DNA of 25,733 nucleotides, from IMG/VR virus record IMGVR_UViG_2585427772_000005, positions 1-25,733 of that record; one strand, written 5' to 3'. Numbering within the stretch: the stretch's first letter is position 1; every line of letters begins with the position of its first letter. This stretch comes from a virus. Taxonomy: Duplodnaviria > Heunggongvirae > Uroviricota > Caudoviricetes. The translations under genes were made by a program, and so were the position numbers. Below, piece after piece: positions 1 to 20,647 of this stretch. The notes beneath the pieces were generated by a model. The model did no database searches and was not told where the DNA came from. It saw only the letters and a program-made list of their open reading frames with translations.

Positions 1-1131
1 TCAAATGACCAGTTTTTTCCATTCCTTACCGCGTGCGTCGTTGTAAATATCGGTCATTTTTTGATTCGAATGGCCCAGCAAAATTTTGGTATCAACCCCC
101 TGCTCTCTGAACAATCGCTCTGATAAAGATCTCTGCTCATGGAAAGAGGGTGGGGTGCCATTAGCACGCCAGTTGTAATCCACAGAATCCCGGGCTTTTT
201 TAAATGCAACGGTTAATGTTGCTGGCTTAACCATCCCGCCGCGCTTAGCTGTCCCTTTCGCGTGATGGTGGTGCAATAGCCACGGACTAAGAACGCAATC
301 GCGGCAGGATGACACTACATCATCCAGGGTGAGATTTAATTTATCGCAACGCAGAGCCAGAGGGATGGCAATCCGGGTTCCTGTTTTTTGCTGTTCGACA
401 TGAAGATAACCATCCCGGATATCCGAAAATTGCATTTTGCAAATATCTGAAAGGCGCTGGCCTGTCATCAGTGCCAGCAGCATACCGCGCTGTAAAAAGT
501 AACCATCCTTTTCCGCTGCGTTATAAATCATCATCCACTCATCAAAAGTCAGTCGCTGTCTTGATATCCGCACCTGCGGTTTTTTTGCCGATTCTGCAGG
601 GTTAAAGCCTGGCGGGACATCGCCCGTTTGCTGAGCTTCCCGGAAAACATCGATCAGTACTTTCCTGAAAATTTGTCCCATTCTGTTATGTCCTCTGGCC
701 TTGTACTCTTCCAGTACTGATACCACATCTTTTACGGTTATGGCATCTAACGGTCTGGTGCCAAAACGTTCATCAAATACCCTGAGAGGGGCCGCTTTCT
801 GTTTCAGCGTGTTGAGTTTGATCTCGCCGTTTTCATATCTTTCCTGTTGAATTTTTCTGTAATTATTCAGAAAAATGGTAACGGTTGATGAACCGCCGGT
901 ATCACTAATAATTTTCTCCTGCAGACTGAGCATTTGTTCCATTTGCTGCCGGGCAAGACGGCTGTTCGCTTCTGCTGCAATAGTTTCTGCCAGTTTCTGG
1001 TCAATACTGCCGAGACCGTGATTTTTGCCTGTTATGGGATGCCTGTAACGCCAGTAAACTTTGTTATTTCTTTTGTCAAAATACGGAGATAATCCCGGAA
1101 CATCGGTTTTATATTTTCGCGGGCGCGCCAT
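1..1131 (-). CDS. int: Phage integrase, tyrosine recombinase family
   Basis: 376-aa ORF at the prophage end. C-terminal region has the catalytic pattern of lambda-family integrases (HEQRSLSERLF ... LLGHSNQKMTDIY with the terminal Tyr). GAGGA lies about 10 nt upstream of the ATG. The stop codon is at window position 1-3, so the att site would lie just outside the window. Confidence 0.9.
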   Translation of the reverse strand: MARPRKYKTDVPGLSPYFDKRNNKVYWRYRHPITGKNHGLGSIDQKLAETIAAEANSRLARQQMEQMLSLQEKIISDTGGSSTVTIFLNNYRKIQQERYENGEIKLNTLKQKAAPLRVFDERFGTRPLDAITVKDVVSVLEEYKARGHNRMGQIFRKVLIDVFREAQQTGDVPPGFNPAESAKKPQVRISRQRLTFDEWMMIYNAAEKDGYFLQRGMLLALMTGQRLSDICKMQFSDIRDGYLHVEQQKTGTRIAIPLALRCDKLNLTLDDVVSSCRDCVLSPWLLHHHHAKGTAKRGGMVKPATLTVAFKKARDSVDYNWRANGTPPSFHEQRSLSERLFREQGVDTKILLGHSNQKMTDIYNDARGKEWKKLVI

Positions 1132-3975: not shown

Positions 3976-4179
3976 TTACGGCGCTGTTTTTAATCCTGCC
4001 GGGATTTCGTTATTGTCCATGTGAATAACTTTATCGACCGGATAACAGTTGCCGGGAATTTTCTGTTCCGCTGCGGCAGCCATGCATTCTTTCATTGAGT
4101 TGTACATGCCGGTGATTGCATCAAGCGACTCACCAGTATTGAGATGTACAGTCAGAATGAGTACGAATAATGTGTTCAT
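3976..4179 (-). CDS. Small exported protein of unknown function (prophage early-left accessory gene)
   Basis: The start ATG overlaps the stop of the upstream 62-aa ORF (ATGA), which argues for translational coupling and for ATG at 4179 rather than the GTG at 4185 used by the ORF track. The N-terminus is hydrophobic (NTLFVLILTV), consistent with a signal peptide or membrane anchor. Confidence 0.5.
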   Translation of the reverse strand: MNTLFVLILTVHLNTGESLDAITGMYNSMKECMAAAAEQKIPGNCYPVDKVIHMDNNEIPAGLKTAP

Positions 4180-4364
4180 CGCCACTCTCCGAAAATACCG
4201 AGTTTAAGAAGGGCAATTCTGGAGAGTATGGAATTGTCATTCAGCAGGTAGGGTTCATATTTTCTCATATTGATTGCATCCTCGGTGAAATCCCTGTTAC
4301 TGAGCAGAACACCAATATTAAAGCACCCGTCAGACGTATTAACGTTTGGTAGTGACGTTTCCAT
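4176..4364 (-). CDS. Hypothetical protein, 62 aa
   Basis: Co-directional with its neighbours. GAGGA lies 7 nt upstream of the ATG and overlaps the Rha stop codon; its own stop overlaps the next gene start. Confidence 0.5.
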   Translation of the reverse strand: METSLPNVNTSDGCFNIGVLLSNRDFTEDAINMRKYEPYLLNDNSILSRIALLKLGIFGEWR

Positions 4365-4374
4365 TATCGCGTCC

Positions 4375-4932
4375 TCAACAATGAATTTTTAGCAATTGCT
4401 CCACAGTCATATTTTTAATTGCGCTCCGGTTTACAAGAGTCCATCCTTGTTTCTCCAGATAAAACCGGAAGGTATCCAGGGTGCAGACCATTGCGCCGTC
4501 AGGAACGGTTTCAGTGAATTTGATATTGCCGTGTTCGTCGAGACGGATAACCAGGGTGCGTCCGTCCCCGTGAATCATTTTGTCGGGAGACGGGGCGTTA
4601 TTCTGGCGCAGTTCTGCTTCCATGCGGTCGAACTCAGCAATGTATGCCTCTTTAAATGCAGCGGCTTTTTTGCCAGTGAAGCCCATCACCAGGAAAACGA
4701 AGCCGTTTTTGGTGATTTGGTACATTGGGAGTTTGCGCCCGGTTGAGTCGGTGTATTCGCTCGACACAAAATTGTGCTCAGTGAATTTTGCTGAACAGTC
4801 CAGATTGCGAATTTTATCCAACACTCGTTCGTGGCGTTTGCCAAAGAACTCGGCGATCGCAACAGACGTAGTGACAGCGCGACCATTTTCGATGGTTACG
4901 TCAGGGTGAGAAAGGGTAAGGATAGTAGCCAT
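4375..4932 (-). CDS. Rha-family phage regulatory protein
   Basis: The ORF track extends this to 5229, but the internal ATG at 4932 is preceded by GGAGG at an 8-nt spacing, and the conserved Rha N-terminal pattern (AIAEFFGKRHERVLDKIRNL ... MYQITKNGFVFLVMGFTGKKAAAFKEAYIAEF) begins just after it. The upstream 99 codons look like a non-coding in-frame extension. Confidence 0.7.
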   Translation of the reverse strand: MATILTLSHPDVTIENGRAVTTSVAIAEFFGKRHERVLDKIRNLDCSAKFTEHNFVSSEYTDSTGRKLPMYQITKNGFVFLVMGFTGKKAAAFKEAYIAEFDRMEAELRQNNAPSPDKMIHGDGRTLVIRLDEHGNIKFTETVPDGAMVCTLDTFRFYLEKQGWTLVNRSAIKNMTVEQLLKIHC

Positions 4933-5775
4933 GATGGCAGCCTCCGCGATGAATTTGATTAACTCACCACCGAGGTTTTCCACGACCATAAGGGTGGTGA
5001 GACGTACAGGGGTGGAAATACCGGTCATCACGGAACCCGGCCAGCCTTGCGGCTGCCCTGCACGCCCCACCATAATGCGAATGTGGCTGTGCTTAACGCA
5101 TAAAAAAACCGCCTGAGCGCGGTTATGCGCCGTGAATGATTTCGGGTTTCCACGCCCGGCACCCGTTTTATGAGGTGCAGGTGCACTATAATTCCACCCG
5201 TTCTGGTTTTCAATAGCTACATTCAACATTTTCTCTACCTTTCATCACCGAAGTGAACTTTGTTGATGCGGTGCCTGGTGCCTCCAGGTGACGTTAACCA
5301 GTTAACAATTAACGTCGGATACAGAGCATTCCCGTTACGCCCGTAAAAGACCGCTTGTTTTAACTGTTCCGCGTGCGCTGAGCCGCATTCACCGCATCAC
5401 AAAATTCACTTTAAAAAGGGCGGCAGAGCAGTCACGGAGTAGAACTGATACCGCCAAAAGTCACCAGAAAATTGATAACAGAGGGCGTTGCAGCGGAGTT
5501 GTCACTTAAGCGTATGGTCAACCTGACAACCCGGTGTCCTCAACGGGGGAAGAAATACCCCCGCCATACTTACCGCCGCGCCATTTCGCGGATTGCCACA
5601 ACCGGAAGCGCACGATCGAATTAAATTTAACGACGACCTATACAGAGAGACTAACTTCTCCGGGCGCTTTCGTGTTATGCCCTGACTTTTCAGGGATATA
5701 TCCTTTTCAGTAAACTGTCAGTGCCGGATTCTTATCCGTGTCCGGCGCACGCACTCTACCTCACCTGTGAATAAA

Positions 5776-6150
5776 TTAATGATTAATTGATATTTTGTTG
5801 TTTGATTCAACTTTCCCATCGGATGTGTGATGCTTTAAATCACAGGAATTAATACTGCTCGCTGTAAAATGATTTTCAAGGGGAGCTATTCGAATCCCTT
5901 TCTTTTTCATTAACAAGCCAAATCCTTTATTAATGATGTCCATTAATTCCAGGAAGTATTTTTCATGTAAATCCTGGTTATCAGAGAGCTGCTTCTCTTC
6001 GTACAGACCGATAAAGGCACGACGCACGTTACCGGATATAGTATCGATGGTTTCTTTTTCTACGGTACTCAGGTCAAGAGTCGCCAGTTGAGAGCGAACC
6101 ACATTCGATGCCATTTCCTGGAATGGTACTGGTAAATCTTTAAATTCCAT
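5776..6150 (-). CDS. Hypothetical protein, about 124 aa (repressor-proximal accessory gene)
   Basis: GAGG lies 7 nt upstream of the internal ATG at 6150; the track start at 6162 lacks an SD. The 3' third of the gene is AT-rich. I recognise no family. Confidence 0.55.
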   Translation of the reverse strand: MEFKDLPVPFQEMASNVVRSQLATLDLSTVEKETIDTISGNVRRAFIGLYEEKQLSDNQDLHEKYFLELMDIINKGFGLLMKKKGIRIAPLENHFTASSINSCDLKHHTSDGKVESNNKISINH

Positions 6151-6161
6151 CGTCAACCTCA

Positions 6162-6314
6162 TCAGTCAGTGTTTCTGGTTAACCAGCGACGCGCGCCAGC
6201 TTCAGTTTTAAACGTTTTGCTTCTGGTATACGTCATCGCGGTAAACGTGCCGTCCTGGTTGGGAAACACGCCGTACACCAGAGATTCGTTGTTGCCAAGA
6301 TCGATAGTATCCAT
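6162..6314 (-). CDS. Small hypothetical protein, 50 aa (below the ORF-track size cutoff)
   Basis: ATG at 6314 with GAGG about 8 nt upstream. The translation MDTIDLGNNESLVYGVFPNQDGTFTAMTYTRSKTFKTEAGARRWLTRNTD has balanced composition. Its TGA stop overlaps the SD of the downstream gene. It sits where Rac-type prophages carry small ydaF/ydaG-like genes. Confidence 0.45.
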   Translation of the reverse strand: MDTIDLGNNESLVYGVFPNQDGTFTAMTYTRSKTFKTEAGARRWLTRNTD

Positions 6315-6519
6315 GCTGACCTCATTTCCCCTTAACGCCGGGTGGCGGAACTAAAACCTACAGCGCCGTGCTGTTCTTGATAGAAATATTAGTAACGCGG
6401 ATATTTTAAGTCAACAGTATGGCGTATGATATTTTTGATTTGGTAACTATGTAAATGTTTTTTCAAGGGAAAAATATTAGTTATACAGCTGATTTGCAGA
6501 AGTTATGGCACAAAAAAAC

Positions 6520-6553
6520 CAACTAAGACGTCGGTTTTTTTGTTGTGGATGGG
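6520..6553 (-). terminator. Candidate weak intrinsic terminator 3' of the repressor gene
   Basis: An A7CC ... GGT8 inverted repeat (9-bp, mostly A-U stem) around a GACGTC palindrome, immediately downstream of the repressor stop. The symmetric structure could act on either strand. Confidence 0.3.
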
Positions 6554-7029: not shown

Positions 7030-7136
7030 ACATAGAGTTTATTTGTTTTACCAATATTATCAAAGATAGCCTGGCTATTGATCTTTAAAATTAGCGGGGC
7101 TAATATTTGCTCGAGGCATAACGTAGAAGGTTGGCT
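7030..7136. promoter_or_regulatory. Divergent immunity promoter/operator region between the repressor and the Cro-like gene
   Basis: AT-rich 107-bp spacer with inverted repeats (AAAGAT ... ATCTTT flanking AGCCTGGCT; AATATT palindromes) placed like OR/PR/PRM. Confidence 0.5.
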
Positions 7137-7412
7137 ATGAACTTAAGAGACTATTTAAAAGAGAAACATATCACCCAGCTACAGTTTGGGAAGCTAACGG
7201 GTTTATCTCAGGTGCATGTAAGTCGAGTGCTGGGGGGCTATGAAAGATTCAGCCCTGAAAAAGCATTACGTGTTGCTGAAGTAACGAATTTCGAGGTTAC
7301 ACCTCATGAACTCCGGCCTGATATTTACCCGAATCCAACCGACGGCTTACCTGTTGGATTCAAGGCTAACACACCAAATGCATCGGAGTTGATTCATGAA
7401 AATCAGGCATGA
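7137..7412 (+). CDS. Cro-like HTH protein (YdaS-type)
   Basis: ATG at 7137 with GAAGG 8 nt upstream; the track start at 7131 is a TTG. HTH pattern (QLQFGKLTGLSQVHVSRVL). It sits in the cro position. Confidence 0.7.
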   Translation: MNLRDYLKEKHITQLQFGKLTGLSQVHVSRVLGGYERFSPEKALRVAEVTNFEVTPHELRPDIYPNPTDGLPVGFKANTPNASELIHENQA

Positions 7413-7821
7413 GCACATCCGCATGGCGATGAATGCCTGGGCGCATCCGGACGGTGAAAAAGTTCCGGCAGCTGAAATAACCCGGGCTTATTTTGAGCTT
7501 GGTATGACGTTCCCGGAATTATATGACGACAGCCATCCGGAAGCCCTGGCTCGCAATACCCAGAAAATTTTCCGCTGGGTGGAGAAAGACACTCCTGATG
7601 CGGTTAAAAAAATTCAGGCGTTGTTACCAGCGATCGAAAAAGCAATGCCGCCTCTGCTGGTGGCCCGAATGCGCAGCCACAGTTCAGCTTATTTTCGGGA
7701 GCTGGTGGAGACGCGGGAACGACTGGTGAGAGACGCTGATGATTTTGTCGCAGTGGCGATCGCTGGTTTCAACCAGATGAATCGTGGTGGCCCGGCGGGA
7801 AATATTGTGGTTGTGCATTGA
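7396..7821 (+). CDS. YdaT-like protein (cII-position regulator or toxin-like protein of Rac-type prophages)
   Basis: 141-aa ORF overlapping the YdaS-like gene by 17 nt, with GGAG 7 nt upstream. The sequence (MKIRHEHIRMAMNAWAHPDGEKVPAAEITRAYFELGMTFPELYDD...) matches my recollection of Rac YdaT-family proteins. Confidence 0.7.
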   Translation: MKIRHEHIRMAMNAWAHPDGEKVPAAEITRAYFELGMTFPELYDDSHPEALARNTQKIFRWVEKDTPDAVKKIQALLPAIEKAMPPLLVARMRSHSSAYFRELVETRERLVRDADDFVAVAIAGFNQMNRGGPAGNIVVVH

Positions 7822-7892
7822 CTGACAATATTCATACCGGATCGCTTCCGGTAATTCGTGAGTAAAAAGATTCGGTATCAGAAGAGGTGAGT

Positions 7893-8933
7893 ATGGCTAA
7901 TGCCTGGCTCAGGTTATGGCATGACATGCCAAATGATCCTAAGTGGCGAACAATTTCCAGGGTGTCAGGACAGCCAATTGCAACAGTGATGGCGGTGTAT
8001 ATCCACCTTCTGGTGAGCGCGTCACGAAATGTCACGACATGTCACGGCGTGTCACTACGTGGTCACATTGATGTCACGACGGAAGATTTAGCAAGTGCGC
8101 TTGATGTGACGGAAGAAGTAATTGATTCAATTTTACAGGCAATGCAGGGGCGGGTACTTGATGGAGATTTAATCACCGGATGGGAAAAACGCCAGGTACT
8201 GAAAGAGGACAATGGCAACGTTTCACAAACCGCGAAATCCCCGGCAGAGCGCAAGAGAGCGCAGCGCGAGAGGGAAAAATTACGAAAACAGAATGAGGGG
8301 TGTCACGACGAGTCACGCATATGTCACGACATGTCACGACGAGTCACGACAGATAAAGATACAGATAAAGAATTAAACCCCACACATAACGCGCACGTGC
8401 GCGAGAGTGCTCCGACCAGTGAGTCGAGTGGTACGCCGTTGCAGGCAGCAGAACCTGCATCCCTGGATGGACTGAGCGAACCCATCGGGAAATTTCCGAT
8501 GGTCGATGACTGGCATCCGTCGCCGGATTTTCGACGACGGGCTGCGTTGTGGGGGATGGCTTTGCCGGAGCCGGAATTTACACCTGCTGAACTTGCCGCT
8601 TTCCGGGACTACTGGGCAGCGGAGGGGAAAGTTTTCACGCAGGTTCAGTGGGAGCAGAAATTCGCCCGTCACGTAAATCACGTCAGGGCGCAGGTTAAGC
8701 CAGTCAGCAAGGGGGTAAACCATGCAGCAGCACCAGGTGGCACCGCATCACGGGCAGTTCAGGAAATTCGGGCAGCACGTGAGCAGTGGGAACGTGAAAA
8801 CGGATTTATCAGCGACGGAAACGGTCTGGAAGCTGTGGGAACTCATGGGGGAGGTTTATTCGAACCGCTGGACCCAGAAGAACGGGGCCGCACCTTCGAA
8901 GCTCTGGATTGCACAGATTGGCGCGATGACTGA
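7893..8933 (+). CDS. Replication initiator (lambda O-like replisome organiser) with the origin embedded in its coding sequence
   Basis: N-terminus (MANAWLRLWHDMPNDPKWRTIS) resembles phage replisome-organiser N-domains. Two iteron clusters followed by an AT-rich block lie inside the ORF. The 3' end is uncertain because the last ~210 nt overlap the P-like gene in another frame. Confidence 0.7.
   Translation: MANAWLRLWHDMPNDPKWRTISRVSGQPIATVMAVYIHLLVSASRNVTTCHGVSLRGHIDVTTEDLASALDVTEEVIDSILQAMQGRVLDGDLITGWEKRQVLKEDNGNVSQTAKSPAERKRAQREREKLRKQNEGCHDESRICHDMSRRVTTDKDTDKELNPTHNAHVRESAPTSESSGTPLQAAEPASLDGLSEPIGKFPMVDDWHPSPDFRRRAALWGMALPEPEFTPAELAAFRDYWAAEGKVFTQVQWEQKFARHVNHVRAQVKPVSKGVNHAAAPGGTASRAVQEIRAAREQWERENGFISDGNGLEAVGTHGGGLFEPLDPEERGRTFEALDCTDWRDD
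8021..8082. repeat. Iteron cluster 1: six direct GTCAC(G) repeats at roughly 10-11 bp spacing
   Basis: Direct reading: GTCACGAAAT GTCACGACAT GTCACGGCGT GTCACTACGT G GTCACATTGAT GTCACGACGG. Confidence 0.75.
8302..8380. repeat. Iteron cluster 2 (five GTCACG repeats) followed by an AT-rich block; candidate origin of replication
   Basis: GTCACGACG A GTCACGCATAT GTCACGACAT GTCACGACGA GTCACGAC, then AGATAAAGATACAGATAAAGAATTAAA. The layout resembles the lambda ori inside gene O. Confidence 0.7.
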
Positions 8934-9387
8934 GCAGCAAATCCGACAGGTCTGCCGCCAGTGCATGGACCGCTGCCGGGCGGGTGAAACATGGCCTCCG
9001 GACCTGGCTGAGTTTGTGGCGCTGATTTCGGAGAGCGGAGCCAATCCATTCGGTCTGACGGTGGATGCTGTGATGGAGGAGTACCGCCGCTGGCGCAATG
9101 AGTCCTGGCGATATGACGGAAGTGATAAGTACCCGTGGCCTCAGCCTGTGCTGTATCACATTTGCCTTGAGATGCGTTCAAAGGGGATTGAGCGCCAGAT
9201 GACCGAAGGGGAATTAAAACGGCTTGCAGAACGGCAGCTGACGAAATGGGCAAAGCATGTTAGTAACGGCCTGAGCGTTCCGCCAGTCCGGCGACAACTG
9301 GCGGCACCCAAACGCCCGTCGGGGCCAACGCCAATTGAGTTGCTGAAACAGGAATATGAACGCCGGAAAGCGGCTGGGTTTGTCTGA
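8722..9387 (+). CDS. Replication protein P-like (helicase loader, lambda P family)
   Basis: 221-aa ORF with AAGGGGG 6 nt upstream of the ATG at 8722. Similarity to lambda P runs from near the N-terminus (WIAQIGAMTEQQIRQ ... PDLAEFVAL ... YPWPQPVLYHICLEMRSKG against lambda P WVLAFRENGITTMEQV ... PGQFVAW ... YPWKSNAHYWLV). Confidence 0.65.
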   Translation: MQQHQVAPHHGQFRKFGQHVSSGNVKTDLSATETVWKLWELMGEVYSNRWTQKNGAAPSKLWIAQIGAMTEQQIRQVCRQCMDRCRAGETWPPDLAEFVALISESGANPFGLTVDAVMEEYRRWRNESWRYDGSDKYPWPQPVLYHICLEMRSKGIERQMTEGELKRLAERQLTKWAKHVSNGLSVPPVRRQLAAPKRPSGPTPIELLKQEYERRKAAGFV

Positions 9388-11970: not shown

Positions 11971-12229
11971 ATACAGCGAACGCTATTGGTTTAGTTGGAT
12001 ATTTACTGTGCCGGACAAAAACGGTTTGCAGGGAAATCTTAGTTAAGTAGAATGACTGTGGGTGCTTGAGGCTATCTGTCTCAGGCATGAACACCAAAAG
12101 GCAGATAGAGAAAAGCCCCAGTTAACATTACGCGTCCTGCAAGACGCTTAACATTAATCTGAGGCCATATCTATGCTCTACACACGTAGGTTAGCCTCTT
12201 ACGTGCCGAAAGGCAAGGAGAAGCAGGCT

Positions 12230-12385
12230 ATGAAGCAGCAAAAGGCGATGCTAATCGCCCTGATCGTCATCTGTTTAACCGTCATAGTGACGGCACTGGT
12301 AACGAGGAAAGACCTCTGCGAGGTACGAATCCGAACCGGCCAGACGGAGGTCGCTGTCTTCACAGCTTACGAACCTGAGGAGTAA
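12230..12385 (+). CDS. hok: Hok/Gef-family type I toxin (HokD/RelF-like, 51 aa)
   Basis: The translation MKQQKAMLIALIVICLTVIVTALVTRKDLCEVRIRTGQTEVAVFTAYEPEE has the Hok-family hydrophobic helix and conserved LC-E-R core, and matches the chromosomal HokD/RelF sequence as I recall it. The track ORF starting at 12173 is an in-frame upstream extension. A strong terminator follows. Confidence 0.8.
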   Translation: MKQQKAMLIALIVICLTVIVTALVTRKDLCEVRIRTGQTEVAVFTAYEPEE

Positions 12386-12778: not shown

Positions 12779-12837
12779 GTTATAATACGTGAGCCAGCCT
12801 GAACAACTGGCAACCTGCAGCGCCATTGGAGATGACA

Positions 12838-13110
12838 ATGGCGCATAATTTCAAATTTCGCAATTCTGATTCTGCCTTTGCCAGCAGGCACGGGTGGCGT
12901 TCTCACGCATTCAAATATGACTGGTATCAGCACGATCCCTGTACTGAAGAACAGGCCGAATGGCTGATTCATAACTACCGCAGACGTGGATATGAGTTTA
13001 GGAAAGCCCTCACCCTCGATTATCGTCACTGGATAATCTACGTCAGACTCCCTTATTCCGAACGCCCACCGCGTCCGTCCCGCACATTCCAGCAACGCAT
13101 CTGGAGGTAA
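12838..13110 (+). CDS. Hypothetical nin-region protein, about 90 aa
   Basis: GGAG 6 nt upstream of the ATG at 12838. It ends 1 nt before the DUF968-like gene on the same strand. The larger antisense ORF 12706..13236 has low-complexity S/T/R-rich composition. Confidence 0.5.
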   Translation: MAHNFKFRNSDSAFASRHGWRSHAFKYDWYQHDPCTEEQAEWLIHNYRRRGYEFRKALTLDYRHWIIYVRLPYSERPPRPSRTFQQRIWR

Positions 13111-15937: not shown

Positions 15938-16987
15938 ATGCTTAATACTGTAAAAATATCCAGTTGTGAGTTAATCAACGCCGACTGCCTGGAATTTATC
16001 CGGTCGTTACCCGAAAATTCTGTTGACCTGATAGTCACGGACCCGCCGTACTTTAAAGTGAAGCCTGAGGGCTGGGATAACCAGTGGAAGGGCGACGATG
16101 ATTACCTGAAGTGGCTGGACCAGTGTCTGGCGCAGTTCTGGCGGGTGCTGAAACCTGTCGGAAGTCTTTACCTGTTCTGTGGTCATCGCCTGGCATCTGA
16201 TATCGAAATCATGATGCGTGAACGCTTCAGTGTGCTGAACCATATTATCTGGGCGAAGCCGTCCGGACGCTGGAACGGATGCAACAAGGAAAGCCTGCGG
16301 GCGTATTTCCCCGCCACAGAGCGCATTCTGTTCGCGGAACATTATCAGGGGCCGTATCGTCCGAAAGATGCCGGGTATGCGGCGAAGGGCAGTGCACTGA
16401 AACAGCATGTGATGGCCCCGCTGATTTCTTACTTTCGTGATGCGCGCGCGGCCCTGGGGATAACGGCAAAACAGATTGCAGATGCCACAGGAAAGAAAAA
16501 CATGGTGTCGCACTGGTTCAGTGCCAGTCAGTGGCAGCTACCGAACGAAAGCGATTATCTGAAATTACAGTCGCTGTTTGCCCGGGTGGCAGAAGAGAAA
16601 CATCAGCGCGGTGAACTGGAAAAGCCCCACCACCAGCTGGTGGATACGTATACGTCACTGAACCGGCAGTATGTGGAGCTGCAGAGTGAATATAAGCATC
16701 TGCGGCGGTATTTTGGTGTGACGGCGCAGGTGCCGTACACGGATGTGTGGACACATAAACCGGTGCAGTTCTATCCCGGGAAACATCCGTGCGAAAAACC
16801 GGCAGAAATGCTGCAGCAGATAATCAGCGCAAGCAGTCGTCCGGGTGACCTGGTTGCAGATTTTTTTATGGGCTCAGGTTCAACGGTAAAAGCTGCACTG
16901 GCGCTCGGGCGTCGTGCGATTGGCGTTGAACTGGAGACCGGACGTTTTGAGCAGACAGTCAGGGAAGTTCAGGATTTAATCGTTTGA
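15938..16987 (+). CDS. Orphan DNA methyltransferase (probably N6-adenine; DPPY motif IV N-terminal to FxGxG motif I)
   Basis: 349-aa ORF. DLIVTDPPYF near the N-terminus and DFFMGSGSTVKAA near the C-terminus. No restriction-endonuclease-like partner ORF is adjacent. Confidence 0.85.
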   Translation: MLNTVKISSCELINADCLEFIRSLPENSVDLIVTDPPYFKVKPEGWDNQWKGDDDYLKWLDQCLAQFWRVLKPVGSLYLFCGHRLASDIEIMMRERFSVLNHIIWAKPSGRWNGCNKESLRAYFPATERILFAEHYQGPYRPKDAGYAAKGSALKQHVMAPLISYFRDARAALGITAKQIADATGKKNMVSHWFSASQWQLPNESDYLKLQSLFARVAEEKHQRGELEKPHHQLVDTYTSLNRQYVELQSEYKHLRRYFGVTAQVPYTDVWTHKPVQFYPGKHPCEKPAEMLQQIISASSRPGDLVADFFMGSGSTVKAALALGRRAIGVELETGRFEQTVREVQDLIV

Positions 16988-17036: not shown

Positions 17037-17112
17037 GGCCCTTTAGCTCAGTGGTGAGAGCGAGCGACTCATAATCGCCAGGTCGCTGGTTCAAATCCAG
17101 CAAGGGCCACCA
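17037..17112 (+). tRNA. tRNA with CAU anticodon, most likely tRNA-Ile2 (lysidine-modified, reads AUA)
   Basis: Cloverleaf read by hand: acceptor GGCCCTT/AAGGGCC, D-arm GCTC..GAGC, anticodon loop CTCATAA, T-arm GCTGG-TTCAAAT-CCAGC, encoded CCA. Closely resembles E. coli tRNA-Ile2 as recalled. Confidence 0.85.
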
Positions 17113-17212
17113 TCACAAACCGCCATTAGCTTATCAGGAAGAGCAGACGACACGATAACAGGGTTGTTGGTGCGGGGGCGGGTCCCCGATGACGGTCCAT
17201 TATCGGTATTCA

Positions 17213-17289
17213 GCGTTGTTAGCTCAGCCGGACAGAGCAATTGCCTTCTAAGCAATCGGTCACTGGTTCGAATCCAGTACAGCGCGCCA
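17213..17289 (+). tRNA. tRNA-Arg (anticodon UCU, reads AGA/AGG)
   Basis: Cloverleaf: acceptor GCGTTGT/ACAGCGC with one G-U pair, anticodon stem ATTGC/GCAAT, loop CTTCTAA, T-arm ACTGG-TTCGAAT-CCAGT, encoded CCA. Confidence 0.9.
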
Positions 17290-17753: not shown

Positions 17754-18144
17754 ATACATATCTGGATTATCACCGGTTACGGTAAAAAGTGATTGCTTAC
17801 TGTTTTTGTGAATGGCATTGCAGCAGCCGGATAATGTCAGTGCTGGCTGACGGTGTGCTGGTGGCGGGGGTGGTGGTTGCTGCTTTCCCGTTGCTGAAAA
17901 AGAAAACGCCAGACTGTTAGCCGGGTATCAGTTAGCGGGAGAAATTTTTAAATACTTCACAATTCAGGCGGTTGACTGTTGTCTGGTTTGCGGGGAGTTT
18001 GTTAAAAGAAACTGGCATGGTGAATCCCCCTGTGCGGAGGGGCAATCAGCGAGTAGGTATATGGGATAATCGCGGATTCAGGTGCTGGTACTGAATTCAC
18101 CGGGAGGCACCCGGCACCATGCAATGGCACATAGCGCCACTCTC

Positions 18145-18178
18145 CAGCCCCTCTCCGGAGGGGCTGTTTATATTGATT
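18145..18178 (+). terminator. Strong rho-independent terminator
   Basis: 9-bp perfect GC-rich stem CAGCCCCTC / GAGGGGCTG with loop TCCG, followed by TTTATATTGATTTT. It lies 23 nt beyond the 3' end of the minus-strand ORF 18201..18536. Confidence 0.65.
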
Positions 18179-18781: not shown

Positions 18782-20647
18782 ATGGTGGAAAGAACCATGG
18801 CATTTAAACACTATGATGTTGTCAGGGCGGCGTCGCCGTCAGATCTTGCGGAAAAGCTGACACATAAACTGAAAGAGGGCTGGCAGCCGTTTGGTAGTCC
18901 GGTGGCCATAACCCCTTATACCCTGATGCAGGCGATTGCAGCAGAAGGTGATGTGGTCGTCAGTGGTGCAACTGAGCCGGAGTGGTACTACGTCATCGTA
19001 CTGGCCGGGCAGTCCAATGCCATGGCTTACGGTGAAGGGCTTCCGCTTCCGGATTCATACGATGCGCCCCATCCGCGCATTAAGCAACTGGCCCGTCGTA
19101 ACACAGTGACTCCCGGTGGTGAAGTATGCGTATTTAACGACATCATTCCTGCTGACCATTGTCTGCATGATGTTCAGGATATGAGTACGATTAACCATCC
19201 CCGGGCTGACCTGAGCAAAGGGCAGTACGGCTGTGTCGGACAGGGCTTACATATTGCCAAAAAACTGCTTCCGTATATCCCTAATAACGCGGGGATCCTG
19301 CTGGTACCATGCTGTCGTGGTGGTTCGGCATTCACCCAGGGCACGGAGGGGACATTCAGCGAGTCCACGGGGGCCAGTCAGGATTCGGCTCGCTGGGGAG
19401 TGGGTAAGCCGTTATATCAGGATCTGCTTTTCCGCACGAAGGCAGCATTGCAGAAAAACCCGAAAAACGTTTTGCTGGCGATATGCTGGATGCAGGGGGA
19501 ATTCGATATGACGAATGCCAGTTACGCCCAGCAGCCAGCAGCATTTCTTGCAATGGTACAGCAGTTCCGTGCTGACCTTGCCGGGCTGGCGGCGCAGTGT
19601 CACGGTGGAAGTCCGGCATCAGTCCCCTGGATTTGTGGCGACACGACATACGCGTGGAAACAAGAACACGGTACGCAATATGAAGTGGTATATGGTGCAT
19701 ATAAAGGTAAAGAATCCCAGCAGATTTATTTTGTTCCCTTTATGACCGATGGTAGCGGAGTTAATACACCGACAAACAACCCGTCAGAAGATCCTGATAT
19801 TGTCGGGTCTGGTTATTACGGTTCGGCATCCCGAACGAACAAAAACTGGGTATCATCAAATCGCCCGACGCATTTCAGCTCATGGGCGCGTCGTGGCATT
19901 ATTCCCGATCGTATGGCAACCGCTATTCTGAACGCAGCCGGGCGCACCTCAGCCTTCATCAGTGGTAAGGCACCGGAAATCAAACCCTCGCCCGGCGGCG
20001 ACACGCCATCGGGTCCGTCTGCAGATACGTCCGTTCGCACAATCTCCCTGCTGCCGACAGCCGGAGAGGCTGCTGCGCAGGGCTGGAGCATTAAGAATGG
20101 CGGAATTCAGTTGTCAGATGGTGTATTTAAGATCACCAAGCAGAGCAATAAAGCCTGGTCCCTGACGCGCCCGGTGGATGACGCAGTCTCCCTGCTGACA
20201 CGGGGTGGCAGACTGAGCTGTAAGTTTCGACTGTCAGGCGCACTGACCAACAACCAGTTCGGTCTGGGAATTTATCTGTATACCGATGTAGCGTTACCTG
20301 ACGTCGTGGCGATGACCGGGACTGGTAACCCGTTCCTGATGTCGTTCTTCACCCAGACCACAGACGGCAAACTGAATCTGATGCATCACAAGAAAGCCGG
20401 AAACACAAAGTTGGGCGAGTTCGGGAATTACAGTAACGACTGGCAGACGCTGGAGCTGGTGTTCACCGCCGGCAGTGCCACGGTTACTCCGAAACTGAAT
20501 GGAGTGGCTGGCCCGGCATTCCAGGTCATAAAAGACAGTCTGACACTGGGGCTGAATGCGCTGACGTTAACTGATATCACTAAAAATGCCGCGTACGGCG
20601 TCGATATCGGCAGCCTGGTGCTGGAAATCAATAATCCCGCAGCATAA
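18782..20647 (+). CDS. NanS-p-like sialate O-acetylesterase (DUF1737 N-domain, SASA/SGNH esterase domain, C-terminal lectin-like domain)
   Basis: 621-aa ORF. VIVLAGQSNAMAYGEG is the SGNH/SASA catalytic-serine motif. Same architecture and position (after the tRNAs) as the nanS-p/yjhS-like genes of Stx phages. The alternative start at 18797 (MAFKHYDV) has a modest SD. Confidence 0.8.
   Translation: MVERTMAFKHYDVVRAASPSDLAEKLTHKLKEGWQPFGSPVAITPYTLMQAIAAEGDVVVSGATEPEWYYVIVLAGQSNAMAYGEGLPLPDSYDAPHPRIKQLARRNTVTPGGEVCVFNDIIPADHCLHDVQDMSTINHPRADLSKGQYGCVGQGLHIAKKLLPYIPNNAGILLVPCCRGGSAFTQGTEGTFSESTGASQDSARWGVGKPLYQDLLFRTKAALQKNPKNVLLAICWMQGEFDMTNASYAQQPAAFLAMVQQFRADLAGLAAQCHGGSPASVPWICGDTTYAWKQEHGTQYEVVYGAYKGKESQQIYFVPFMTDGSGVNTPTNNPSEDPDIVGSGYYGSASRTNKNWVSSNRPTHFSSWARRGIIPDRMATAILNAAGRTSAFISGKAPEIKPSPGGDTPSGPSADTSVRTISLLPTAGEAAAQGWSIKNGGIQLSDGVFKITKQSNKAWSLTRPVDDAVSLLTRGGRLSCKFRLSGALTNNQFGLGIYLYTDVALPDVVAMTGTGNPFLMSFFTQTTDGKLNLMHHKKAGNTKLGEFGNYSNDWQTLELVFTAGSATVTPKLNGVAGPAFQVIKDSLTLGLNALTLTDITKNAAYGVDIGSLVLEINNPAA

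Follow-up and report, generated by a model that had tools for sequence, protein, structure and literature searches.

The immunity region of CP-933P (Sp12), a prophage of E. coli O157:H7, comprises PaaR2, YdaS and YdaT (Jurenas 2021, PMC8630535; Prolic-Kalinsek 2023, PMC9986795). Experiments have shown that its YdaT is non-toxic and is the CII-equivalent activator of a PRE-like promoter (PMC8630535, PMC9986795): the protein binds TTGATTN6AATCAA at the ydaS/ydaT junction and thereby activates PRE933P (PMC9986795, PMC8630535). The CP-933P YdaS acts like Cro (PMC8630535, PMC9986795), and slows growth when it is overexpressed for long. In the Rac prophage of E. coli K-12, racR is an essential gene; knocking it down relieves the repression of ydaS-ydaT and leads to filamentation and death (PMC5700377, PMC5700373). 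The Rac YdaT, which shares the TTGATT-N6-AATCAA motif, activates the host gene rcsA and is toxic (PMC11879457).

Two further systems illustrate how prophages with short repressors may be switched. In Qin, DicA represses dicBp, and Rem, a proven antirepressor of DicA, lifts this repression 165-fold; the ensuing filamentation needs DicB or DicF, and mitomycin C gives no induction (10.1101/2023.04.14.536235). The same promoter can also become active spontaneously, or in response to urea or heat, in a manner that is independent of Rem and RecA and dependent on DicC (10.1101/2023.04.14.536235). The Gifsy prophages combine a short repressor devoid of a cleavage domain with a separate antirepressor module (Lemire 2011, PMC3121763), and in Gifsy-1 expression of AnrP raises transcription of the antQ operon and induces the prophage (PMC4825925).

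Here we describe the immunity region of a lambda-type prophage of E. coli, integrated beside ompW, as found in a window of 25,733 nucleotides (the whole stretch of DNA analyzed), in which the int, xis, replication, Q and late-region genes all look complete. An earlier note on this DNA had interpreted two genes at 7137-7821 as a Rac-type toxic pair held in check by a non-cleavable repressor, with induction proceeding through an antirepressor for which a Rha-domain protein was a candidate. The non-cleavable repressor, the antirepressor route and the candidacy of the Rha protein are upheld by our analysis; the Rac-type designation and the toxicity of the pair are not. We are confident that the pair instead represents the rightward early regulatory operon, with YdaS as the Cro analog, YdaT as the CII analog and the divergent 153-aa repressor as the CI analog.

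Architecture of the immunity region

What the window shows directly is which genes it encodes, which domains their products contain, where the motifs lie and which experimentally characterized proteins are homologous (Table 1). The ORF of the ydaS-like gene begins with ATG, with an alternative TTG start at 7131 that would yield 93 aa, and overlaps the ydaT ORF by 17 nt; the repressor gene diverges from the pair. The resulting order is repressor (-), HTH protein (+), YdaT (+), O-like and P-like, and, as the replication genes lie directly downstream of ydaT, the pair occupies the cro-cII position of the lambdoid map. The coordinates that the earlier note gave for the pair are exact when compared with the ORF list, and its family calls were confirmed with Pfam, PHROG and RefSeq. 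In a 99%-identical locus, RefSeq names the three genes 'helix-turn-helix domain-containing protein', 'YdaS family helix-turn-helix protein' and 'toxin YdaT family protein', and the repressor together with the intergenic region was recovered from 180 of 5426 complete E. coli genomes. This recurrence and the RefSeq annotation indicate that the three genes are real and conserved rather than chance ORFs. The arrangement is an ordinary and already well described one, namely the Cro-like/CII-like switch of a lambda-type prophage.

Table 1. Coordinates of the features of the immunity region, leftward operon and candidate antirepressor genes in the window
Feature	Position	Strand	Evidence or remark
dicB, cell-division inhibitor	4176-4364	-	NCBIfam CellDivInhibDicB 103.4 bits (cut-off 100)
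Rha-domain protein (AnrP-like)	4375-4932	-	Pfam Phage_pRha 1e-30; NCBIfam phage_pRha TIGR02681 108 bits
C4-like RNA/orf45-equivalent leader	4990-5077	-	Rfam C4 81.9 bits (gathering 45)
IsrK-like RNA	5102-5178	-	Rfam isrK 67.7 bits (gathering 50)
DicF sRNA gene, inhibits ftsZ translation	5418-5469	-	Rfam RF00039 71.5 bits (gathering 48)
128-aa ORF	5776-6162	-	One of the first leftward-operon genes
DUF1391/YdfA homolog	6162-6314	-	Pfam DUF1391 4e-28; 92% identical to Qin YdfA
Putative OL/PL analog	6385-6481	-	Two AATATTAGT motifs, 6385-6393 and 6473-6481
Hairpin (inverted repeat I2)	6510-6543		14-nt arms, 93% complementary, flanking A/T runs; directly past repressor stop codon
Maintenance repressor, 153 aa	6568-7029	-	N-terminal XRE/CI-type HTH and short DicA-like helical C-terminus; HTH_3, DicA model, PDB
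Divergent control region, putative OR analog	7030-7136		Motif count, promoter scan, direct reading
ydaS-like gene, probable Cro analog, XRE HTH protein, 91 aa	7137-7412	+	Pfam, PHROG, PDB
Putative YdaT operator (OM-like), TTGATTCATGAAAATCAG	7389-7406		One mismatch to footprinted TTGATTN6AATCAA (PMC9986795)
ydaT gene, probable CII analog, 141 aa	7396-7821	+	PDB 3c4r/8bt1, Pfam, PHROG 163
Replication genes, O/DnaT-like and lambda P-like	7887-9387	+	Pfam DnaT 1e-17; Phage_lambda_P 2.5e-16; PHROG 1408, 109
Rem-like ORF, 57 aa	12605-12778	+	Between hok/sok and DUF968 (ydfU-like) gene, as rem in Qin

The HTH_3 match of the repressor (1.1e-9) is confined to residues 23-75 and leaves about 78 residues after the HTH. 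No Peptidase_S24 domain was found with Pfam at E<=10, either in the whole protein or in its C-terminal 77 aa searched alone, in agreement with the earlier claim that an S24 autopeptidase domain is missing; self-cleavage stimulated by RecA is thus no route to inactivation of the repressor. The CI of Stx2 phages shares 50% identity with residues 14-89, and a weak PDB match (2.6e-4) links the protein to the lambda CI N-terminal domain. The NCBIfam model of DicA aligns with residues 18-152 (E 1e-8), with a score of 35 bits that falls under the cut-off of 101. Identity to Qin DicA is 38% over the C-terminal 42 aa and about 27% overall. Judged from its sequence, the repressor probably falls among the short (about 135-155 aa), non-cleavable prophage repressors in the style of DicA and Gifsy (GfoR). 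It gives no meaningful alignment with RacR (BLASTP E = 26).

The divergent control region of 107 bp, shared by the repressor gene and the ydaS-like gene as the first of its operon, contains the motif AATATTRGY at 7050-7058 and 7099-7107, the second copy overlapping the palindrome ATTAGCGGGGCTAAT (7090-7104). This motif was seen 5 times in the window against an expectation of 0.85, and 4 of the 5 copies lie in the two control regions. A consensus scan placed a PRM-like leftward promoter at 7063-7036; its -10 element ends 7 nt ahead of the repressor ATG, which implies a leaderless repressor mRNA, and by analogy with cI and PaaR2 (PMC8630535) the transcript probably is leaderless. The hairpin past the repressor gene is likely to act as the terminator of this transcript. 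Beyond it, the two AATATTAGT motifs overlap or flank leftward sigma70-like promoters at 6414-6386 and 6455-6426, and the position of this segment suggests that it corresponds to PL. The promoters and operators here are consensus matches, and the operator assignments are putative. In the scheme that they suggest, the repressor would keep PR and the PL-like promoter off via paired operators at 7050-7107 and 6385-6481.

The layout is the same in CP-933P, where a short repressor gene diverges from the genes for a Cro-like HTH protein and YdaT, with replication genes following, and leaderless expression of the repressor is likely in both. At the sequence level the likeness resides in YdaT (~88% identity) and in the operator motif at the ydaS/ydaT junction; the repressor and YdaS were compared by layout. 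The two loci also differ in what follows the repressor, the toxin-antitoxin genes paaA2-parE2 in CP-933P versus a likely terminator and the PL-like promoter here, and in the operator motif for repressor and Cro, which is AATATTRGY here versus GTTTAGTAA repeats in CP-933P. Rac-SA53 (KU052037), a Rac-like prophage encoding LT-IIa, has the same control region, with a repressor ('dicA') that is 99% identical over its whole length and a Cro analog ('dicC') that is 98% identical. Its YdaT, in contrast, belongs to the type found in K-12 Rac and is 32% identical to the present one, with a mosaic joint at about window position 7420, in codon 8 of ydaT. It further differs in its leftward operon (kilR/recET versus DicF/dicB/Rha here) and its integration site (ttcA versus ompW here). 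A text search of the literature on Rac-SA53 returned nothing relevant.

YdaS and YdaT in the rightward operon

The 141-aa protein matches Pfam YdaT_toxin (PF06254) with 39.1 bits against a cut-off of 21, and PHROG 163, 'CII-like transcriptional activator', at 2.7e-45. It is about 97% identical to PDB 3c4r (1e-90) and about 88% identical to the CP-933P YdaT (PDB 8bt1; 1e-79), with the recognition-helix segment NTQKIFRW being identical in the latter comparison. Both solved relatives display a POU-like HTH followed by a long C-terminal tetramerizing helix, and near-identity over the full length to 3c4r and 8bt1 indicates that the present protein possesses the same two elements. The putative operator straddles the gene junction, taking in the last bases of ydaS and the start codon of ydaT, which is the position of lambda PRE. 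By our own calculation, only about 0.06 matches to TTGATTN6AATCAA with one mismatch are expected in the whole window, and both Rac-SA53 and K-12 Rac carry the conserved box at the corresponding position. The promoter scan detected no consensus leftward promoter at the junction, as is to be expected of a PRE-like promoter that would be activator-dependent. We propose that a YdaT tetramer would bind TTGATTCATGAAAATCAG across the junction and turn on a leftward PRE-like promoter, whose transcript would serve as repressor mRNA, and also be antisense to ydaS, while lysogeny is established.

The 91-aa protein has a borderline match to Pfam YdaS_toxin (PF15943; 30.8 bits, cut-off 30), along with matches to HTH_3 (29.2 bits) and PHROG 35 (5e-26) and weak PDB matches to the phage Cro proteins 8c7k and 8co2. 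Its identity to the K-12 YdaS is 32% over 50 aa. Matches to HigA/HipB-type proteins, which might prompt a toxin-antitoxin reading, are weak, lie far below threshold and reflect the shared XRE fold. Made from PR, YdaS would bind AATATTRGY-type operators in common with the repressor and turn off the leftward PRM.

Candidate antirepressors and the route of induction

The repressor being short and non-cleavable, and given the precedents of Gifsy (Lemire 2011, PMC3121763) and Qin (Ragunathan 2023, 10.1101/2023.04.14.536235), induction through an antirepressor is plausible, as the earlier note had proposed. Derepression would then come about via such a protein, or by a stochastic flip of a bistable switch, instead of self-cleavage. 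As in Gifsy, a separate module of the same prophage contains a small candidate gene, and its 57-aa Rem-like product is in our view the most likely antirepressor, a choice of cognate partner that follows from comparisons with related elements. Just as in Qin, the gene comes after hok: from hok to about codon 25 the DNA is near-identical to Qin, with only scattered substitutions, and diverges thereafter. At the protein level, identity to Qin Rem is 76% over the first 25 aa, and the C-terminus belongs to a different type, a shorter one. In Rac-SA53, the Rem that accompanies the same repressor is of this short type and 68% identical over the full length. The class of the Rem C-terminus tracks that of the repressor in all 6 of the elements compared, although these cover just two repressor classes in partly related prophages, and linkage rather than function may explain the pattern. 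Among the E. coli records common to both of our sampled lists, 13 of 14 have a rem-like gene 7-11 kb downstream of the repressor and on the same strand. The spacing between the two genes takes several different values in these records.

The repressor, too, resembles that of Qin, both being short and non-cleavable and related in their C-termini (Ragunathan 2023, 10.1101/2023.04.14.536235 = PMC10448788). The repressors of the two prophages are nonetheless only about 27% identical overall, and the present one falls under the DicA family cut-off. The Cro analog is YdaS-like here and DicC, a member of a different family, in Qin, and the CII position is held here by a full-length YdaT and in Qin by the truncated YdfX.

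The Rha-domain protein, which the earlier note had put forward, is encoded by a real gene and makes a fair candidate, situated as it is behind the IsrK- and C4-like RNAs; the Rem-like ORF, which that note had missed, is the better-founded one. The possibility that the Rha protein (4375-4932), and not the Rem-like one, is the cognate antirepressor appears to us unlikely, if worth consideration. It would have the IsrK RNA acting in trans to unlock translation of the leader and Rha, which would then bind and inactivate the repressor. The architecture upstream is indeed that of the Gifsy-1 isrK-orf45-anrP module (PMC4825925), with an IsrK RNA that has a predicted promoter of its own (5213-5185) and an internal terminator (5124-5107), a structured leader and a Rha-type gene. 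Antirepressor is a frequent annotation of phage proteins with a Rha domain, and in the present one the N-terminal ~110 aa are conserved among phages while the C-terminal ~75 aa vary, as expected of a specificity domain. Against it, 1) the Gifsy-1 work on AnrP did not demonstrate direct binding of a repressor by AnrP or any Rha-domain protein; 2) Rac-SA53, with its 99% identical repressor, has no Rha module in the leftward operon, and merely a distant Ant (23% identity) elsewhere; 3) the gene lies inside an operon that the repressor itself should silence; and 4) the module also occurs in Stx2a phages, of which at least one (Stx2_131990) has a CI assigned in annotation elsewhere to the LexA family, which argues that the module is not tied to non-cleavable repressors.

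The module, an insertion between DicF and dicB relative to Qin, has some peculiarities of its own. In Gifsy-1 the orf45 stop overlaps the anrP start (AUGA), whereas here the orf45-equivalent frame runs on into the Rha gene; the frame is likewise continuous in S. dysenteriae (PMC4825925). Were translation to begin at one of the alternative in-frame starts, 5072 or 5229, the Rha protein would be fused to the RNA leader. A 284-aa 'Ash+Rha' ORF is doubtful as a true gene, since its 'Ash' part corresponds to the two RNA genes and holds the isrK promoter, and also since homology to Stx2a phages starts at 5177, the 5' end of isrK. The folding energy of an IsrK/leader duplex (-58.3 kcal/mol) was equaled by 29 of 300 shuffles and is uninformative.

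We give rather little credence to a switch that has no dedicated antirepressor at all and operates stochastically or by physical stress via the Cro-like protein, or to the variant in which the prophage is domesticated and non-inducible. The spontaneous and urea- or heat-triggered, Rem- and RecA-independent activity of Qin dicBp speaks for such a switch, and so does the lack of a LexA box preceding the rem-like gene. The paradigmatic Gifsy antirepressor is under LexA control, in contrast to both candidates here: no box of the CTGT-N8-ACAG type lies ahead of 12605 or 5178, and none of the 15 matches with up to one mismatch precedes either gene. The sole exact box (12939-12954) is inside a 94-aa ORF and not upstream of a candidate, and a good-looking one at 15948-15963 lies where a DNA methylase ORF begins. 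Nor is any other recognizable signal seen ahead of the rem-like gene. The 94-aa ORF itself (12826-13110) shows no similarity to Rem, the Rem-like protein being its 57-aa neighbor. On the other side, most of the sampled genomes, and Rac-SA53 as well, pair the repressor with an intact Rem-like ORF, and the apparent completeness of the int, xis, replication, Q and late-region genes does not suggest domestication.

Returning to the Rem-like protein as the favored antirepressor, a speculative extension is that Rem-family antirepressors are two-part proteins, in which ~25 conserved N-terminal residues precede a C-terminal module that can be exchanged and that fits the C-terminal domain of one particular class of non-cleavable repressor, and that this prophage combines two SOS-blind circuits, one Rem-like and the other an sRNA-gated Rha/AnrP-like one, on a single repressor. 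In this two-part reading the N-terminal ~25 residues go together with the conserved upstream region. Were it correct, the short 57-aa Rem would represent a new repressor/antirepressor specificity pair, present in about 3% of E. coli genomes and in the LT-II toxin phage Rac-SA53. The repressor and the short Rem make a simple and testable pair with which to study how prophages are induced independently of SOS, in uropathogenic E. coli and in others. RefSeq mis-annotates the short Rem variant as a truncated pseudogene.

The leftward operon and the question of toxicity

The first genes of the leftward operon (5776-6314) match PHROG 6937, and its order of ydfA homolog, DicF, dicB and ydfD homolog is that of Qin. 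The dicB product is 64% identical to Qin DicB, and RefSeq names the gene dicB. These known division inhibitors, DicF and DicB, had escaped the earlier note. Derepression would switch on the leftward operon, with DicF, DicB, a ydfD-like lysis gene and an exonuclease, along with the replication and late genes. As with every phenotype considered here, we infer the consequences of repressor loss from these gene contents: any 'toxicity' would be expected from the division block combined with lytic development and not from YdaS/YdaT toxins. If loss of the repressor is toxic, DicF (5418-5469), DicB (4176-4364) or lytic growth would be better-founded causes than YdaS and YdaT.

That YdaS and YdaT are toxic effectors checked by the repressor, as in a 'toxin-repressor' module of the RacR-YdaS-YdaT type, so that repressor loss kills or aborts through them, is highly improbable: it draws on the Pfam family names YdaS_toxin and YdaT_toxin and on the K-12 racR and rcsA phenotypes described above, but the repressor is unrelated to RacR, YdaS and YdaT are just 32% identical to their Rac counterparts, the 88%-identical YdaT of CP-933P is non-toxic and the CP-933P pair proved to be regulators (PMC8630535), an earlier toxin-antitoxin prediction has been refuted and criticized on genetic context (PMC5917428), and established division inhibitors lie in an operon presumably under the same repressor. 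K-12 Rac does share with this locus the gene order, a YdaT-family CII analog and the same box over its start codon; yet, with no detectable homology between the repressors and only distant YdaS and YdaT proteins, the Rac toxicity data are not simply transferable, nor is the 'Rac-type' label.

The 'toxin' label of YdaS and YdaT is a legacy name. Such names in Pfam and RefSeq invite a toxin-antitoxin or abortive reading, which the work on a near-identical protein contradicts for the present subtype. Tests of repressor essentiality in prophages of this kind should control for DicB, DicF and the lytic genes before YdaS/YdaT are blamed. The present YdaT may still have a host-directed effect, given that the Rac YdaT has the same recognition motif in DNA and acts on the host by activating rcsA (PMC5700377, PMC11879457).

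Identity of the ydaS-ydaT pair

The window spans 25.7 kb at the left end of a lambdoid E. coli prophage; in E. coli strain EcPF7 a copy with 99% identity adjoins ompW. A YdaS-like and a YdaT-like gene, overlapping by 17 nt, are separated from a divergent repressor gene by a 107-bp intergenic region and are directly followed by a DnaT/O-like gene and then a lambda-P-like replication gene (Pfam, PHROG). An earlier note had placed this pair, at the same coordinates, next to the repressor; this is confirmed, and the RefSeq annotation of the three genes in the EcPF7 copy agrees. The note's view of the pair as toxic is outdated for the YdaT subtype found here. Pfam assigns the 141-aa protein to YdaT_toxin (39.1 bits, cut-off 21), and PHROG to family 163, 'CII-like transcriptional activator' (2.7e-45). 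This protein shares about 97% identity along its full length with PDB 3c4r, a structure deposited by structural genomics for an E. coli O6:H1 cryptic prophage, and about 88% with PDB 8bt1, the YdaT of the O157:H7 prophage CP-933P, with an identical recognition-helix segment, NTQKIFRW. The 91-aa protein scores barely above the Pfam YdaS_toxin cut-off (30.8 bits versus 30), and also matches Pfam HTH_3 and PHROG 35 (5e-26). The 'toxin' in these Pfam names goes back to an early prediction of toxin-antitoxin function, since refuted (PMC5917428).

In CP-933P, PaaR2, YdaS and YdaT act as the equivalents of CI, Cro and CII; YdaT is non-toxic, and switches on the otherwise silent leftward promoter PRE933P, and its footprint covers an inverted repeat, TTGATTN6AATCAA, where ydaS ends (PMC8630535, PMC9986795). 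In the window, TTGATTCATGAAAATCAG (7389-7406) departs from this motif at one position and exactly covers the ydaT start codon and the ydaS 3' end; by our own calculation some 0.06 one-mismatch matches would be expected over the full window. The same box lies in the same place in phage Rac-SA53 and K-12 Rac, and Rac YdaT has been reported to use this motif (PMC11879457). Given the near-identity of YdaT, the roles established in CP-933P and the operator motif at the ydaS/ydaT junction, the pair is the operon in the cro-cII position of the immunity switch.

The box TGATTCATGAAAATCA and the first eight ydaT codons (MKI(R/K)HEHI; ~7389-7420) are kept across YdaT types otherwise only 32% identical, and mark where recombination has joined a Rac-SA53-like half of the immunity region to a CP-933P-like one; the YdaT of Rac-SA53 is of Rac type, and the joint falls at ~7420, just 3' of these conserved elements. 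Where Rac-SA53 has TAG the window has TCG, making the Cro analogue 91 rather than 82 aa, hence its overlap with ydaT in the window. The whole locus is a mosaic of known parts: YdaT plus operator of CP-933P/CFT073 type, a repressor/Cro pair of Rac-SA53 type, a leftward operon and rem position of Qin type, and an IsrK module of Gifsy-1 type. The finding is real but ordinary. For every part there is either a published description or an annotation in public genomes.

The repressor and its candidate operators

The only domain of the repressor is HTH_3 (residues 23-75), and Peptidase_S24 gave no match at E<=10 in either the whole protein or its C-terminal 77 residues; self-cleavage by RecA stimulation, which the earlier note had called unlikely, is therefore unavailable to it. 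It is unlike RacR, with which BLASTP gave no alignment, and a Rac-type reading does not hold. The N-terminal domain weakly resembles the lambda CI DNA-binding domain; residues 14-89 are 50% identical to CI of some Stx2 phages (one such CI is annotated LexA-family), and the last 42 residues share 38% identity with the Qin DicA C-terminus. Against the NCBIfam DicA model the alignment runs from end to end (E 1e-8) but scores far below the cut-off. The repressor and Cro analogue are respectively 99% and 98% identical to 'dicA' and 'dicC' of Rac-SA53, and the repressor region was found in 180 of 5426 complete E. coli genomes.

The window contains five copies of the 9-nt motif AATATTRGY, where 0.85 would arise by expectation; four of the copies fall in the two stretches expected to hold operators. 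The pair 3' of the repressor gene overlaps leftward promoter-like sites. A further leftward promoter-like sequence, TTGATA-16-TAAACT, stops 7 nt short of the repressor ATG, and no Shine-Dalgarno sequence is seen before this ATG; together these suggest that the mRNA is leaderless, like those of cI and PaaR2. We infer these operators and promoters from the sequence. Just 3' of the PL-like promoter and 5' of the DUF1391 gene, a GC-rich short hairpin, ACAGCACGGCGCTGT, is followed by a T-rich tract (6360-6374, minus strand) and may serve the leftward operon as an early terminator or a nut-like element.

The leftward operon and loss of the repressor

Features of the immunity region and its surroundings, in window coordinates
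Feature	Position	Strand	Remarks
End of integrase gene	1-1131	-	window start
ydfD homologue, then exonuclease			last listed of leftward operon
dicB	4176-4364		after Rha gene; NCBIfam 103 bits, cut-off 100
Rha gene	4375-4932		leftward operon, after C4-like RNA
C4-like RNA	4990-5077		leftward operon, after IsrK-like RNA
IsrK-like RNA	5102-5178		leftward operon, after DicF
DicF RNA	5418-5469		Rfam 71.5 bits
DUF1391/YdfA homologue, then 128-aa ORF			first genes of leftward operon
AATATTRGY copies	6385-6393, 6473-6481		just past hairpin terminator 3' of repressor gene
Repressor ORF, 153 aa	6568-7029	-	divergent from ydaS-ydaT
AATATTRGY copies	7050-7058, 7099-7107		between divergent genes; second inside palindrome ATTAGCGGGGCTAAT
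YdaS-like ORF, 91 aa	7137-7412	+	
YdaT-like ORF, 141 aa	7396-7821	+	
sok/hok type I toxin-antitoxin locus; tRNA-Met (cat); tRNA-Arg (tct); STnc100	12060-12385, 17037-17289, 17986-18175		RNA genes; Rfam: sok 117 bits, STnc100 132 bits
Rem-like ORF, intact, 57 aa	12605-12778	+	rem position, between hok/sok and DUF968 gene

Qin DicA represses an equivalent operon, whose derepression causes filamentation and growth inhibition requiring DicB or DicF (10.1101/2023.04.14.536235). Hence the proposal that repressor loss is toxic is plausible here by analogy, with DicF and DicB rather than YdaS/YdaT as the well-founded effectors, to which a functional prophage would add its replication and late genes. 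YdaT may contribute by acting on host targets, as Rac YdaT is reported to act on rcsA, but the CP-933P result lowers the likelihood of this.

Candidate antirepressors

The step from a non-cleavable repressor to an antirepressor is sound: short Gifsy repressors, with DicA and RacR named as relatives, are inactivated by small antirepressors (Lemire et al., PMC3121763), and Qin Rem derepresses a DicA-controlled promoter 165-fold, with no mitomycin C induction (Ragunathan et al., 10.1101/2023.04.14.536235). The Rem-like ORF of the window is 76% identical to Qin Rem over residues 1-25; the DNA from hok to codon ~25 is near-identical to Qin, with scattered substitutions only, and diverges completely thereafter. 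In the searched collection Rac-SA53 is the only phage with the same repressor, and it alone has a Rem that aligns with the 57-aa protein from end to end (68%). In a set of six elements, the type of C-terminus found in Rem tracks repressor class (two with a 153-aa repressor and short Rem, four with a 135-aa DicA-type repressor and long Rem), which the CII-position protein does not. Among the 14 E. coli records found in both sampled hit lists (repressor and rem-like), 13 have a same-strand rem-like segment located 7-11 kb downstream from the repressor, at no fewer than four distinct spacings. This supports, without proving, a cognate pair of Rem-like ORF and repressor, as there are two classes only and linkage within related prophages could yield the same pattern. 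The co-occurrence of the short Rem variant with this repressor is a mildly new point. In EcPF7 the ORF is intact and identical, and the 75-nt 'partial, missing C-terminus' pseudogene of RefSeq (L001 18827-18901) is a PGAP mis-call, apparently arising from N-terminal likeness to Qin Rem only.

The Rha protein, the candidate of the earlier note, is also a reasonable candidate antirepressor. Upstream of its gene come first the IsrK-like RNA, which has a promoter of its own (5213-5185) and an internal terminator, and next the C4-like leader, matching the Gifsy-1 isrK-orf45-anrP layout, in which IsrK unlocks translation of the antirepressor-like AnrP, whose expression induces Gifsy-1. Three points weigh against it as the cognate antirepressor: direct repressor binding by a Rha-domain protein was not demonstrated in that study (PMC4825925); Rac-SA53 lacks the module, having only a 23%-identical Ant elsewhere; and Stx2a phages carry the module too, with at least one of them among those listed (Stx2_131990) having a CI annotated elsewhere as LexA-family.

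That Ant is encoded by a 185-aa 'ant' gene in the Rac-SA53 tail region, with an sRNA-Xcc1 family RNA (78 bits) 5' of it (L010 42225-42899, minus strand). Only the C-terminal ~60 residues of Ant align, weakly (23% identity, E 7e-5), with the Rha C-terminal part, and the two phages with the same repressor may share this domain. RefSeq and PHROG call a 284-aa 'Ash+Rha' ORF, whose Pfam Phage_ASH match (aa 14-109) falls on the Rfam IsrK and C4 RNA genes. The extension (4933-5229, minus strand) contains the IsrK promoter, and DNA homology across phages sets in at 5177, the 5' end of IsrK, rather than at the ATG (5229). The Ash 'domain' probably results from translating an RNA leader, and this likely spurious extension over two RNA genes is another mildly new point.

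A box search found no LexA box upstream of the Rem-like ORF or the Rha gene. The single exact CTGT-N8-ACAG match in the window (12939-12954) sits inside a 94-aa ORF, and a LexA-box-like aaTACTGTAAAAATATCCAGc (CTG-N10-CAG, AT-rich core) at 15948-15963 spans codons 4-9 of a 349-aa DNA methyltransferase-like ORF (15938-16987) located 3' of the Q antiterminator gene. The STnc100 sRNA lies upstream of a 621-aa ORF (18782-20647).
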